Shown here one piece after another: positions 3 through 3,368 of a stretch of 64,000 bases of DNA. This stretch comes from Acidobacteriota bacterium (lineage in GTDB: Bacteria > Acidobacteriota > Thermoanaerobaculia > Multivoradales > UBA5704). How positions within the stretch are numbered: position 1 is the stretch's first letter; each line of letters opens with the position of its first letter. Location of the stretch: the NCBI GenBank assembly GCA_040005235.1, contig JBDTZG010000005.1, positions 1 to 64,000 of the forward strand, given 5' to 3'. Position numbers and translations under genes: made by a program. Below the pieces are notes generated by a model. It did not search any database, had not been told where the DNA came from, and saw only the letters and a program-made list of their open reading frames with translations.

Positions 3-326
3 AAGGCCGAAGTGATGAAGCAGGCGGCGAGCGCGCTCACCGAGCTGGACAGCTATGGGACGGCGTCCACCGCCGACAAGTACCTCGAACAGATCCAGCA
101 GAAAGTCGCCGAATCGAAAGCCGCGGTCGAGGTGGCGACGGGAGGGCTCGACGTCGACCGGATCAACCTGGAACGCAAAGCGCGGCAGATCCAGGCGCAG
201 AGCATCCTCTCGGAGTTCGAGGTCGAGATGGGGATCAAGAAGCCGGACGCGGTCAGAGAAGCCGCACCGTTCCCGACCGAGAGCTCGGCCCAGCCCGCGG
301 CGCAGAAAGTTCCGGAGGGGCGCTGA
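3..326 (+). CDS. PspA/IM30 (ESCRT-III-like) family protein, C-terminal part; 5' end outside window
   Basis: Frame open from window edge; helical acidic C-terminus (DKYLEQIQQKVAESKAAVEVA...ILSEFEVEMG plus flexible tail) resembling PspA-type helices 4-5. Confidence 0.6.
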   Translation, partial: KAEVMKQAASALTELDSYGTASTADKYLEQIQQKVAESKAAVEVATGGLDVDRINLERKARQIQAQSILSEFEVEMGIKKPDAVREAAPFPTESSAQPAAQKVPEGR

Positions 327-345
327 CCCTTAGCGGGCTTTTCGC

Positions 346-1227
346 ATGGGCCTGTTCACCCGTTATCCGGCGCTCCAAAAAGCGGTCGCCAACCAGTACC
401 AGGCGATCCTCGCGGCGGGAGCTGTGGGCTTTTCGGTCCTCATGCTCTCGCCGCTGCCGCTCCTCCTGTTTGCCGGGGTCGAGCTGATGGTCATGCCGAT
501 GATGGTCGATCGCATCCGGCGTCGGCTGGAGATCGAGAAGAAATTCGCCGATCGCAACGCCGTCGAGATGAGCCAGAAGGAGCAGTGGGACGCCCTGCCC
601 GCGGCTCACCGGGCGCGATTCGAGCGGTTGCGCCAACTGGTGGGGAAGGTCCAGGCCAACTACAAAGGGCTTTCGGTCGCGAGTCAGGGCATCGTCGCCG
701 AGCAGGAGGCGAAGTTCGACGTGATTCTCGCCGCCTGTTTGAAACGCCTGTGGCTGCTCCAGAAGTATGACGAGATGCAGAGCGCGTTCGACGAGAAACA
801 GGTCGAGCAGGAGATCGCCCAGCTGCGCACGGCCCTCGACAAGCCGGCCGCCGAAAGCGACCTCGAACCGAGAGTACGCGAGGCGATCGAAAAAAACCTG
901 GAGATCAAAGAGCAGTTGATCGGCGCGACGAAGCAAAACGTCGCCAACCGCCGCGCTCTCGACGCAGAGATCGATTCGCTCGAATCGCTGCTCCAGCTCC
1001 TGTTCCAGAAGTCGGTCGCGGCGACCGACGCCGCAGCCTTCACCCTGGAGATCGACGACGTGCTCAACCAGGTGCAGGCCGACGCGGCGAGCGTTGAAGA
1101 GATGGAACGCATGCTCGGCAGCCTGCCCGATCTCGACAGCCGCCCACGCCTTTCGCCGCAGATCAAACAGGGGTTTTCGCCGCCTCCCCCTCCGCCGCCG
1201 CAGCGCGTCCGCGAAGGGCGGCGGTAG
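346..1227 (+). CDS. Membrane-anchored coiled-coil protein (N-terminal hydrophobic hairpin, poly-Pro tail)
   Basis: Hydrophobic segment ~aa 21-55, long E/K/Q-rich heptad region, C-terminal SPPPPPPPQ; 19-nt gap from upstream gene. Confidence 0.8.
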   Translation: MGLFTRYPALQKAVANQYQAILAAGAVGFSVLMLSPLPLLLFAGVELMVMPMMVDRIRRRLEIEKKFADRNAVEMSQKEQWDALPAAHRARFERLRQLVGKVQANYKGLSVASQGIVAEQEAKFDVILAACLKRLWLLQKYDEMQSAFDEKQVEQEIAQLRTALDKPAAESDLEPRVREAIEKNLEIKEQLIGATKQNVANRRALDAEIDSLESLLQLLFQKSVAATDAAAFTLEIDDVLNQVQADAASVEEMERMLGSLPDLDSRPRLSPQIKQGFSPPPPPPPQRVREGRR

Positions 1228-1245
1228 GCAAGCGCCATTCCGACT

Positions 1246-3009
1246 ATGCCCGAACCGAACGCTCTTCCCGCCGCCCCCGGTTTCCTCGACTCGCTCCCGC
1301 CTTGGGCCGCCCGCCTGGCGCGCGCGGTCCTCGCCAAGCAGGCTTCGACGTTCGTCATCCACGGCATCCCGGCCGATCTGGTTCCGGTGCGGGGAAGCGG
1401 AGGGTTGCGTTTCTTGAGCCTCGATGACTTTCTGACCGGGGAGCTGTTCGCCACCTGGCCTTCGATCATCACGTTCAATCGCGCCGAGGGTCTCGGTTTC
1501 GCCAGCCCCGCCGCGCGGTCGCATTTCCAGGAACGGATGAAGGCGTACGACGTGGTCCACGGCACCGCCTGGGGGGAGGGGCTGCCGCGCGACGCACCCA
1601 ACTGCTTCGCGCTGCTCGATTCGTACTTCCGGCATTGCGCCTCTCTTTCCCCCGCGCGACCGGTCGTCCTGCTGTTGCCTTTCGCCGAGACCCTGGTGCC
1701 GGCGGCAGAAGTCTCCTATCGCACGCCGGAGGATCGGGCGGTCCTGGTCTATCTCCGCAAATGGTCGCAGGACCCGGTGCTGCTGGCCAAAAACATCGTG
1801 ATCGTGATGATCGCCGAGAGCCTGGCGGAGCTCGATCCCAAGCTGGTCCGCTCGCACGCCACCCGGGAGCTGGAGATTGTCCGGCCGGACCTCGCCGAGC
1901 GGCGCGCCTATCTCGAAGCGGTGCGCGCGCCCGATTGGTACGATCGGCGCTCGGACCTGCCCTCCATCCGCTTGGCCGAGCTGACCGCCGGCATGACCCG
2001 CTTCCAGATGGCGCAATTGCTCGACGAGGCGGACGCGGACGGCGCGAAGCTCTCGCTCGATCGTGTCCGGCAGGTGAAGAAAGAGGTCATCGAAACGGAG
2101 GGCCTGGGCCTGCTCGAATACGTCGAGCCGAAGTTTGACCTGGGAATGGTCGCCGGCATGCCCGCGGTCAAGGCTCGCCTGCGCCGCGCGGCCAAGGCGA
2201 TCGCCCGCGGCAATCCGGCCGCGGTGCCAATGGGCTACCTGGTTTGCGGCCCGGTCGGCAGCGCCAAGACGTTCCTGGTCGAATGCTTCGTCAAGGAGAT
2301 CGGCTTTCCGGTCGTCAAGCTCAAGAACTTCCGCTCGATGTGGGTCGGCTCGACCGAGGCGAACCTCGAACGGATCTTGAAGATTCTCGCCTCGCTTACC
2401 CCTGTGGGGGTGATGATCGACGAGGCCGACACCGCCCTCGGCAACCGGGAGCAGTCGGGCGACTCGGGCACCCAAAATCGCGTCTTCGGCCAGATCGCAA
2501 GCTTCATGGGCGACACCAAGAACCGCGGCAAGATCCTCTGGTTCCTGATCACCGCGCGCCCCGACCTGCTGCCGATCGACCTGAAGCGCCAAGGCCGCGC
2601 GGAAGAGCACATCCCGCTCTTTTACCCCGAGACGATGCACGAGTACGACGAGGTCTTCCAGGTGATGAAGACCAAGCTCGGCCTGCGTACGCCGGTGGCG
2701 ACGCTCGCCGAAGTGACGACCCCCGAAAAACTGCTCGGCTACTCCGGCTCGGATCTGGAAGCCGTGCTCGTCCGCTCGGTCCTCGAAGCCGAAGCGGCGG
2801 AATCTTCCCAAGTCGCGGCCGAGCACCTCAAGCGCGCCTTCGACGATTTCATCCCCACCACCAACAGCCGCGAGCGCCAGATGCAGATCCTCGTCGCCGT
2901 TCTCGAATGCACCAGCCGAGAGCTGCTCCCCGAGGCCTACCGCGACCTGGACCGCGGCGACATCCAGGCGCAAATCGCTCAGATCAAATTGGAGCTCAAG
3001 CTCCTGTAG
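1246..3009 (+). CDS. Classical-clade AAA+ ATPase (degenerate N-terminal AAA-like domain + C-terminal AAA domain)
   Basis: Walker A variant GPVGSAKT, pore loop SMWVGSTE, Walker B VMIDEAD, SRH TARPDLL..LKRQGR, GYSGSDL. Confidence 0.9.
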   Translation: MPEPNALPAAPGFLDSLPPWAARLARAVLAKQASTFVIHGIPADLVPVRGSGGLRFLSLDDFLTGELFATWPSIITFNRAEGLGFASPAARSHFQERMKAYDVVHGTAWGEGLPRDAPNCFALLDSYFRHCASLSPARPVVLLLPFAETLVPAAEVSYRTPEDRAVLVYLRKWSQDPVLLAKNIVIVMIAESLAELDPKLVRSHATRELEIVRPDLAERRAYLEAVRAPDWYDRRSDLPSIRLAELTAGMTRFQMAQLLDEADADGAKLSLDRVRQVKKEVIETEGLGLLEYVEPKFDLGMVAGMPAVKARLRRAAKAIARGNPAAVPMGYLVCGPVGSAKTFLVECFVKEIGFPVVKLKNFRSMWVGSTEANLERILKILASLTPVGVMIDEADTALGNREQSGDSGTQNRVFGQIASFMGDTKNRGKILWFLITARPDLLPIDLKRQGRAEEHIPLFYPETMHEYDEVFQVMKTKLGLRTPVATLAEVTTPEKLLGYSGSDLEAVLVRSVLEAEAAESSQVAAEHLKRAFDDFIPTTNSRERQMQILVAVLECTSRELLPEAYRDLDRGDIQAQIAQIKLELKLL

Positions 3010-3113: not shown

Positions 3114-3368
3114 ATGAGCGCACAGAGCATCATCCTGTTCCTGATCATCGGCGCGATCGCCGGATGGCTCGCCGGCGAGCTTTGGAAGGGGCACGGCTTC
3201 GGCCTCCTCGGTAACATCGTCGTGGGCATCGTGGGTGCCTTCTTGGGCAGTTTCCTGCTCGGCAAGCTCGGTGTCGCCTTCGGAGGAGGAATCCTCGGCT
3301 CGATCCTCGTCGCCACGATAGGGGCGCTGGTCTTGTTGCTGATCGTCGGGTTGGTCAAACGGGCCTGA
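3114..3368 (+). CDS. GlsB/YeaQ/YmgE family (transglycosylase-associated) stress membrane protein
   Basis: IIGAIAGWLA...GLLGNIVVGIVGAFLG...ATIGALVLL signature; RBS GGAG. Confidence 0.9.
   Translation: MSAQSIILFLIIGAIAGWLAGELWKGHGFGLLGNIVVGIVGAFLGSFLLGKLGVAFGGGILGSILVATIGALVLLLIVGLVKRA

Follow-up and report, generated by a model that had tools for sequence, protein, structure and literature searches.

The PspA/IM30 family belongs to the ESCRT-III superfamily. How bacteria dismantle and recycle their polymers of the ESCRT-III type, PspA and Vipp1, is a standing question, and a 2021 Cell paper asks if an ATPase might help in this (PMC8281802). A Vps4-like ATPase appears to be absent in bacteria according to a 2025 review (PMC7619361), and that review and PMC10936438 describe a Vps4-like ATPase, or ESCRT systems as such, as absent from bacteria. 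The closest described counterparts are the gene neighborhoods reported by Ravi et al. in 2024 (mSystems, PMC11237479), in which PspA is accompanied by an "inactive classical AAA + classical AAA" protein, together with a membrane-anchored "divergent Snf7" protein and coiled-coil companions, and which include a long ABC/OmpA operon. ATP-dependent membrane remodeling comparable to Snf7 and Vps4 is proposed there, the contexts are also read as chaperone systems that assemble membrane-linked complexes, and the spread of the ATPase family across phyla is described. The locus analyzed here is a four-gene operon of this kind, g0-pspA-g2-AAA, from a soil acidobacterium with a 6.2-Mb genome in 140 contigs. 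Its 3' part opens the window, by which we mean the whole stretch of DNA analyzed, the first 64 kb (64,000 nucleotides) of contig C56. The operon is real and conserved, and the genomic coupling of PspA to the tandem AAA+ ATPase is strong and repeated. The initial annotation, made from the window sequence, had held that such neighborhoods had been noted computationally before, and the Ravi et al. paper bears this out; with the idea already in print, the operon is a further member of a computationally known kind and not a discovery.

The comparison with the Ravi neighborhoods is one of descriptions and not of that paper's accessions. The shared features are a dead N-terminal AAA domain joined to an active one, a single operon with PspA, and often a membrane-anchored helical protein encoded directly upstream. 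The long variant (PspA / PBPB+OmpA / permease / ABC ATPase / transmembrane protein / AAA) also occurs in sister families of this organism, whereas the operon described here has the short four-gene form and a variant Walker A motif. Like ESCRT-III with Vps4/CdvC (cf. archaeal cdvB-cdvC), the locus combines in one operon a gene for an ESCRT-III-superfamily polymer with a gene for a classical AAA protein having an aromatic pore loop. Vps4, however, combines a single AAA domain with an N-terminal MIT domain for the binding of MIM motifs, whereas this ATPase has two AAA domains and no MIT. The likeness to CDC48/p97/VAT is closer: both are tandem AAA proteins, each of the two domains (D1 and D2) best matches the corresponding p97/VAT domain by profile and by fold, and the pore-loop and arginine-finger motifs agree. 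Unlike CDC48, the ATPase has no N-terminal double-psi barrel, its D1 has no nucleotide motifs, and it is 587 amino acids (aa) long rather than ~750-800 aa. In Escherichia coli PspA is functionally tied to an adjacently encoded AAA+ protein, PspF (PMC7619361, PMC8281802), but PspF is an NtrC-type enhancer-binding AAA+ protein with a helix-turn-helix domain that is inhibited by PspA, whereas this ATPase is of the classical clade and has no DNA-binding domain. The mycobacterial operon of PspA and Rv2743c (PspM) likewise places a small membrane protein gene beside pspA. It differs in having no ATPase as described in PMC11237479, and g2 has no Pfam match to Rv2743c at E ≤ 10.

Three plus-strand open reading frames (ORFs) begin the window: a 107-aa frame open at its 5' end (3..326), a 293-aa frame (346..1227), and a 587-aa frame (1246..3009). 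They are separated by 19 nucleotides (nt; 327-345) and 18 nt (1228-1245), and the three co-oriented, closely spaced genes of the initial annotation are borne out by the ORF listing. The first ORF is the 3' part of pspA (3..326), its last 107 codons and stop. The first 145 codons lie on a second contig, C100 (L002:3-488, minus strand), whose end carries the same 55 bases as the window start (base 1 of C56) on the opposite strand. The terminal open frame of C100 (162 aa) continues in frame into the first ORF of the window. By tblastn the two pspA halves lie head to tail with the expected 17-residue overlap in 16 of 18 fetched ortholog loci; in one of the exceptions (L045, genome G022) the halves merely abut, and the other (L048, genome G017) ends at a contig end. 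The same-genus genome G003, at 99% identity, has an uninterrupted pspA. The G003 ortholog (L034:7009-7764, 252 aa) serves as the stand-in for the whole PspA. C100 also carries g0 (L002:570-1328, minus strand, 252 aa), co-oriented with pspA across an 81-nt gap, and a divergent SEC-C-motif gene lies upstream of g0. The operon extends upstream of the window, as had been supposed, and starts on C100 with the full order g0-pspA-g2-AAA. A module of three genes had been proposed; the three co-occur, and the fourth gene, g0, lay outside the view of that reading. Judged by homology the window genes are real and not chance ORFs, because all three have conserved homologs (6123 scored matches for the AAA protein, 233 for g2). 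Promoter and terminator scans of both contigs gave nothing above shuffled expectation. A search of sequencing runs listed DNA runs, two of which may come from the source sample, and no RNA runs.

Searched alone, the 107 residues encoded in the window have no PspA match in Pfam, just a sub-threshold match to NYN_YacP. The PspA identity becomes visible with the addition of the upstream C100 part, which matches PF04012 at profile positions 3-155 with 55.5 bits against a cutoff of 33.9; the whole G003 ortholog scores 68.9 bits over positions 3-204 of 220. This hidden Markov model (HMM) check with the upstream sequence confirms the earlier description of gene 1 as PspA-like, and by profile score the protein is a PspA/IM30 family member. 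An ESCRT-III fold would follow from family membership and from the solved PspA and Vipp1 structures (PMC8281802, PMC11746142). The score with the NCBIfam equivalog for E. coli-type PspA is just 18.9 bits (cutoff 242.95), which points to a divergent PspA subfamily and not to proteobacterial PspA. At E ≤ 1e-4, an HMM built from 14 ATPase-linked PspAs misses all six of the phylum's classical, unlinked PspAs against which it was run. PspA is the sole PF04012 match in this genome, and the single PspC-domain match lies on another contig.

The ATPase has two AAA domains. Domain 1 (residues ~1-300; 1246..2145, plus strand) is a degenerate AAA+ domain most like D1 of p97/CDC48/VAT. A profile of 22 D1 sequences matches D1 of VAT/CDC48/p97 with E values from 1.7e-9 (VAT D1) to 3e-6, and the AlphaFold (AF2) model of D1, with a predicted local distance difference test (pLDDT) score of 86.1, is matched by Foldseek to p97 N-D1 at E 7.5e-8 with probability 1.00. 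In the alignment D1 has neither the Walker A lysine nor the Walker B acidic pair, with H-G-x-x-x-D at the P-loop and F-A-E in place of hhhhDE, and on these residues D1 is predicted to be incapable of nucleotide binding in the usual mode. An exhaustive search for the family of residues 1-310 returned 808 clusters (50% identity) with E ≤ 1e-3, of which 307 reach E ≤ 1e-10; most of the proteins are 560-610 aa long.

Domain 2 (residues ~301-587; 2146..3009, plus strand) comprises a classical AAA domain, a lid, and a conserved C-terminal helical extension, and matches PF00004 at residues 332-457 (E 5e-22). Its Walker A motif (residues 335-342; 2248..2271) has Ser-Ala before the lysine and not the usual Thr-Gly. 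Pore loop 1 reads M-W-V-G (residues 365-368; 2338..2349), Walker B covers residues 389-395 (2410..2430), and alignments place a sensor-1 T-A-R-P-D, with Ala for Asn, and the second region of homology, with R448 and R451, at 2545..2613, all on the plus strand. In 35 sequences from all operon types the Walker A lysine K341, the Walker B pair D392/E393, W366 and G368 of pore loop 1, D406/G408 of pore loop 2, and R448/R451 are invariant, as is G450. The AAA+ assignment with an aromatic M-W-V-G pore loop made in the initial annotation is thereby upheld, the Walker A lysine, the Walker B acidic pair, and the arginine fingers being invariant as well. By alignment D2 has retained all of the catalytic and pore-loop residues that a hexameric, substrate-threading unfoldase requires. 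The ATPase is 74-98% identical across genera, which indicates that the clade is under strong constraint. The Walker A form G-P-V-G-S-A-K-[TS] is present in 119 of 120 close homologs; among 53 aligned family sequences the Ser-Ala form occurs once, in the window's own protein, the others having mostly G-T-G-K-[TS]. Sensor 1 is Ala in 109 of the 120 close homologs, Ser in 7, and Cys in 4, and is C/A/S/N in the wider family.

The closest solved relatives of D2 found by phmmer are CDC48/p97/VAT (E 4.7e-27 to 1e-24), along with AFG2, NSF, and NVL; Vps4 is absent among the 60 best. NCBIfam scores are 65.9 bits for CDC48 (TIGR01243; cutoff 802), 57.4 for FtsH, 45.6 for PAN, and 32.9 for CdvC (NF041006; cutoff 650), and the placement of D2 rests on this ranking of HMM scores, all of which are far below the curated cutoffs. 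The ATPase is judged to resemble the CDC48 family and not to be a member. The protein begins ~15 residues before the first AAA domain, and Pfam gives no MIT match and no CDC48_N or CDC48_2 match at E ≤ 0.1. Of the Vps4/CDC48 class originally assigned, the CDC48 half stands as the nearest family; with two AAA domains, the first degenerate, no MIT, and the low CdvC score, the protein is not of the Vps4 type. A reading as anti-phage defense was rejected, PADLOC giving only generic AAA similarity (TRIP13 34.5 bits, IetA 24.7 bits).

Several ATPase sequences depart from the usual form. The ortholog in L051 (G023:C16) is in four pieces in different frames and that in L045 (G022:C3) is in two; these splits are frameshifts, assembly errors, or decaying copies. 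P0353 (931 aa) carries an intein (Hom_end_hint, Hom_end, LAGLIDADG_3; residues ~345-623) between D1 and the D2 core. Four long ATPases (P0249, P0253, P0278, and P0319; 818-856 aa) have 240-280 extra N-terminal residues with no Pfam match, and long open frames run through the upstream g2-like gene at L052:121-3228 and L065:5891-8293. These long proteins and frames may be g2-AAA fusions or may reflect missed stop codons.

The arrangement of the genes was compared within the organism's own phylum, which is the scope of all neighborhood counts given here. Orthologs were collected with D1 as the query at ≥70% identity; they are present in 19 of 41 close genomes, this one included, and the 18 loci from the others were fetched and searched by tblastn. 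In 17 of the 18, the gene that immediately follows pspA is g2 or the ATPase gene, and the last (L048) is cut by the contig end. The g0 gene is present in 15 of 18, with no match in L047 and L050. g2 lies between pspA and the ATPase gene in nine loci, namely all seven of the same genus plus L044 and L047, and is missing from the operon in eight of 18 (8/17 informative). Five sister genomes with a g2-less operon (96-100% complete) were searched with a g2 profile, which found g2 in none of them; all five of the positive controls were found. For more distant family members, 18 loci from the same order and family were used, with ORFs called by a GC3-based script. Of 193 ORFs of at least 100 aa near the ATPase gene, 50, chosen on its strand, were sent to Pfam along with six other proteins (56 in all), and a PF04012-positive gene is on the ATPase strand in 14 of the 18 loci. 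These loci have either a PspA-AAA dyad or a long form consisting of PspA, an NMT1/OmpA binding protein, a permease, an ABC ATPase, a g2-like protein, and the AAA protein. Ten further loci from other families divide into five with PspA-g2-AAA (one with g0), four of the long form, and one dyad. A g2-family gene is directly upstream of the AAA gene in nine of these ten, and stop and start codons overlap in several long operons.

The phylum sample comprises 251 genomes, including the unpublished G063, on which no claim rests. With a D1 cutoff of E ≤ 1e-24, 41 genomes have the D1 domain, and 73 have PF04012. Linkage was defined as PF04012 within 8 kb upstream on the same strand, with coordinates read by eye, and on this definition 23 of the 41 D1-bearing genomes, from 16 families, are linked and two are undecidable at contig ends. 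A distant ATPase subclade (E 1e-24 to 1e-45) has no linked member, and 10 of its 11 genomes are among the unlinked or PspA-less ones. Failure of the three genes to co-occur in other genomes had been named beforehand as grounds for giving up the proposal; PspA and the ATPase are linked in 17 of 18 ortholog loci and in 23 of the 41 genomes, and g2 joins them in nine of the 18. These counts show that, in many families of the phylum, this ATPase family and a particular PspA subfamily have kept their pairing.

Alignments define a C-terminal extension of PspA past the Pfam domain (204..323, plus strand). In this clade the extension consists of a conserved helix ending E-M-G-[IL], then K-K-P-D...E-A-A-P-F-P, a variable stretch, and the end Q-K-[VL]-P-E-G. 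In ATPase-linked PspAs, of 250-290 aa, the E-M-G-[IL] helix is followed by a tail of 23-38 residues. The six classical PspAs fetched for comparison have 225-261 aa, four of them ending at or within a few residues of an E-M-G-[IL]-type helix. The helix was considered as a motif specific to linked PspAs and rejected, for it occurs in classical unlinked PspAs as K-K-K-M-G-I. A different element, [KR][TDEQ][LMI]G, usually followed by Pro, lies in the last 22 residues of 19 of 20 linked PspAs outside the window's clade, and a further group of ATPase-linked PspAs ends exactly in K-T-M. These tail patterns were applied to the 78 PspA ORFs that could be extracted from the phylum sample; a further locus yielded none, and two of the 78 look mis-called. 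Either [KR][TDEQ][LMI]G or a terminal KTM is present in 22 of 33 PspAs from genomes with a close-family ATPase, in none of 38 from genomes without the ATPase, and in none of seven from genomes with only the distant ATPase subclade. The 11 misses include four near-variants (N-A-M-G-P, K-S-L-G-P twice, and a terminal K-T-L) and five second, unlinked paralogs. The PspA tail is a candidate handle for the ATPase. Separately, the PspAs of family f48 (L114, L117, L118, L121, L124, and L077), whose genomes have only the distant unlinked ATPase subclade, share a tail of their own, Q-K-I-S-S-A-F-D-x-E-K-E.

The second gene, g2 (346..1227, plus strand), encodes a predicted inner-membrane protein of 293 aa in which a hairpin precedes a cytoplasmic helical bundle and the chain ends in a poly-Pro run and a basic tail. 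The hydrophobic hairpin (residues ~17-55; 394..510) is broken by an invariant S-P-L-P and has basic flanks on both sides. It corresponds to the one continuous hydrophobic stretch of the protein, ~18-54, and 15-residue Kyte-Doolittle windows above 1.6 start at residues 18-40 only. P36, P38, G44, and P51 are invariant in 20 sequences, and both ends of the hairpin are predicted to be cytoplasmic. The AF2 model (pLDDT 73.9) has helices at 17-34 and 37-71 and a helical bundle at residues 76-263. The poly-Pro run (residues 279-285) and basic end lie at 1180..1224, and most of the 20 aligned homologs, but not the long-operon relatives, retain this Pro-rich, Arg-rich end. The hairpin and the modeled bundle agree with the earlier description of gene 2 as a membrane-anchored helical protein with a poly-Pro tail. 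The initial annotation further gave the module its own membrane anchor, which holds for the nine loci with g2; the anchor is not constant, being missing from the operon in the other eight informative ones. In genome G020 the operon copy of g2 (C364:1857-2465) covers profile positions 73-275 only and has an in-frame TAG, and a full-length second copy lies at C495:56-919; the contamination given for this assembly is 4%.

The 233 homologs of g2 are all unnamed or "hypothetical" except for one evident mislabel (MutS), none has a Pfam domain, and g2 itself has no family match in Pfam or NCBIfam. Its homolog in the long PspA/ABC/OmpA operons is the ~290-aa protein whose gene immediately precedes that of the ATPase (hhalign 98.4%, E 5.2e-15, 244 columns). 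Ravi et al. label that long-operon protein "SIG+TM+Snf7", a divergent Snf7 (PMC11237479). Pfam gives g2 no PF03357, PF04012, or Rv2743c match at E ≤ 10, and hhalign of the g2 family with 14 PspA sequences gives a probability of 0.2%. An hmmsearch of PDB sequences with the g2 profile gave no match with E below 0.09 and none to an ESCRT-III chain, and Foldseek found no match to the g2 model at E ≤ 0.001. In two VIA-align searches the best Z scores were 9.6 and 10.6, for unrelated or designed helical bundles and BAR/F-BAR proteins, where the meaningful level for helical proteins is ~13. The BAR/F-BAR matches (Z 8-9.7) are within helical-bundle noise, and no ESCRT-III, PspA, or Vipp1 chain is among the best 50 matches of either search. 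A whole-genome Snf7 search also left g2 unmatched, with the controls in that search likewise below the cutoff. The published Snf7/PspA likeness of the g2 family could not be reproduced in these searches. A language-model search placed Rv2743c (mycobacterial PspM) as the named cluster nearest to g2 with a score of 0.88, which is below 0.9 and a lead only.

The 673 homologs of g0 are mostly unnamed or "hypothetical", with a few evidently spurious coiled-coil labels, and g0 matches no Pfam or NCBIfam family. The protein starts with a conserved N-terminal helix, and a low-complexity linker leads from it to a conserved helical domain and a coiled coil ending P-F-V-[DE]-x-N-P. In two long-operon loci the gene immediately before pspA is a relative of g0 (hhalign 90.9%, E 1.2e-6), and a g0 HMM match lies beside pspA in another family (L083). 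In this clade a conserved A-P-F occurs near the C terminus of both g0 (A-P-F-V-[DE]-x-N-P) and the PspA tail (E-A-A-P-F-P); this shared element could be a common short linear motif or a coincidence.

We read the locus, with a probability of about 0.5, as a four-gene envelope-maintenance operon in which a hexameric ATPase acts on PspA polymers. The hexamer would act on PspA polymers at the inner membrane, and the motor would pull PspA subunits through its pore, probably from the extended C-terminal tail. PspA coats would thereby be remodeled, disassembled, and reused, which is the job of Vps4 for ESCRT-III done by a Cdc48-like motor. As an optional accessory g2 may place the motor or nucleate PspA at the membrane, and g0 would be a soluble helical/coiled-coil partner of PspA. 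ATP-driven PspA remodeling, the "recycling ATPase" of the initial annotation, is suggested by the gene content and motifs. The same functional suggestion was reached from gene neighborhoods by Ravi et al. (PMC11237479), and with a single PF04012 match the genome offers no alternative PspA. The operon family is the most obvious candidate answer to how ESCRT-III-type polymers are turned over in bacteria, and the short four-gene form would be a minimal, compact, and testable system for ATP-driven polymer turnover. To the published idea the present analysis adds mutable residues (K341, E393, and W366), a dead p97-D1-like D1, a g2 that is dispensable in sister genera, and PspA tails that co-vary with the motor. 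A more specific version, which we hold as a tentative proposal, less likely than not, is that this Cdc48-like tandem AAA with its dead D1 is a true bacterial functional counterpart of Vps4 whose hexamer threads subunits of a dedicated PspA subfamily by the C-terminal tail from membrane-bound polymers, with g2 as the docking or nucleation site. If this is true, ATP-driven ESCRT-III turnover was invented at least twice or is older than archaeal Vps4, and the PspA tail motif K-[TDE]-[LM]-G-P (Q-K-[VL]-P-E-G in this clade) is a bacterial analog of MIM.

Several observations weigh against PspA turnover by the motor. The window's own PspA clade does not have the tail motif seen in the other AAA-linked clades (0/14). 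The motif was defined after 20 of the sequences had been seen and the genomes are kin, so the tail counts are not independent, and the association of tail with ATPase may be the shared ancestry of one PspA subfamily. Linkage is also incomplete: of the 41 D1-bearing genomes, 12 have PspA elsewhere, unlinked, and four have no PF04012 match. With the unusual S-A-K-T Walker A and the sensor-1 Ala, D2 of this clade may be a slow ATPase or no ATPase at all. MCM helicases also have Ala before the Walker A lysine, and for this reason the S-A-K form need not abolish activity. In the long operon an ABC importer and a binding protein with an OmpA domain join the PspA-ATPase pair, content that hints at a task beyond polymer recycling. 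PspA itself is reported to hydrolyze ATP (PMC11746142), and a separate motor is on that account not strictly required. No experimental paper on this ATPase was found in the full-text literature, in which subscription journals were not covered. A co-fold of the G003 ATPase (587 aa) with G003 PspA (252 aa) scored 0.00 and 0.01 where the mark is 0.32, with no controls, and is uninformative either way.

The alternatives reassign the roles of the same proteins. PspA, with g0 and g2, could be a regulator or adaptor that holds the AAA protein inactive or recruits it to damaged membrane, leaving the motor to extract or unfold other proteins as Cdc48 and FtsH do. This analogy draws on the motor being nearest to CDC48 and FtsH, extractors of membrane or complexed proteins, on PspF, the known AAA+ partner of PspA, being held inactive in E. 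coli (PMC7619361, PMC8281802), on the chaperone-system reading of Ravi et al. (PMC11237479), and on the transporter and peptidoglycan-binding protein that the long operons add. Yet no protease or other candidate substrate gene is conserved beside the pair in the four-gene type, and PspF, an NtrC-type protein with a DNA-binding domain, has an architecture unrelated to this ATPase. The co-variation of the PspA tail with ATPase presence is as expected for a direct client or handle, but an adaptor would give the same pattern, and we regard the regulator role as possible and rather unlikely.

A role for the ATPase in assembly would make it a loading chaperone that holds PspA and/or g2 in monomeric form and brings them to the membrane, or that handles the insertion or extraction of the g2 hairpin; it would leave polymers intact. 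The g2-family genes are the closest AAA neighbors (directly upstream in 9/10 loci), with overlapping codons in several long operons, and Ravi et al. propose chaperone-like roles (PMC11237479). However, g2 is absent from 8/17 informative loci and was found in 0/5 such genomes, while PspA and the ATPase stay together; because the pair persists without it, g2 cannot be an obligatory client. Classical AAA pore-loop unfoldases, moreover, usually dismantle assemblies rather than build them, and a loading chaperone seems improbable to us. The genes could also be functionally unrelated neighbors, or this clade's ATPase could be a scaffold without catalytic activity, for which the unusual Walker A and sensor-1 residues and the 12 genomes with unlinked ATPase and PspA can be cited. 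Gene order and orientation are nevertheless kept across at least 16 families, the motor residues are invariant, and the protein is 74-98% identical across genera, a conservation which is not expected of a decaying enzyme; we give this explanation very little credence.

Three sets of genes around the operon were also recorded. Downstream, 105 nt past the ATPase gene, an 84-aa small membrane protein of the Transgly_assoc (GlsB/YeaQ/YmgE) type is encoded at window positions 3114-3368 (plus strand; PF04226, E 1.1e-12). This gene follows the operon in 7/7 same-genus loci (two copies in L039) and in 0/11 loci of other genera, and may be a co-regulated stress gene. The SEC-C gene on C100 (L003, 1421-2224, plus strand) encodes 267 aa with an N-terminal C-P-C-G-S-G-K-K-Y-K-x-C-H and stands beside g0 in seven same-genus loci. 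Farther along C100 (L003, 4520-6124 and 6131-7726, minus strand) are two tandem paralogs of ~530 aa that have Gly/Ser-rich repeats and, at the C terminus, a hydrophobic segment with basic residues after it, an ending that presumably resembles a PEP-CTERM-type sorting signal.

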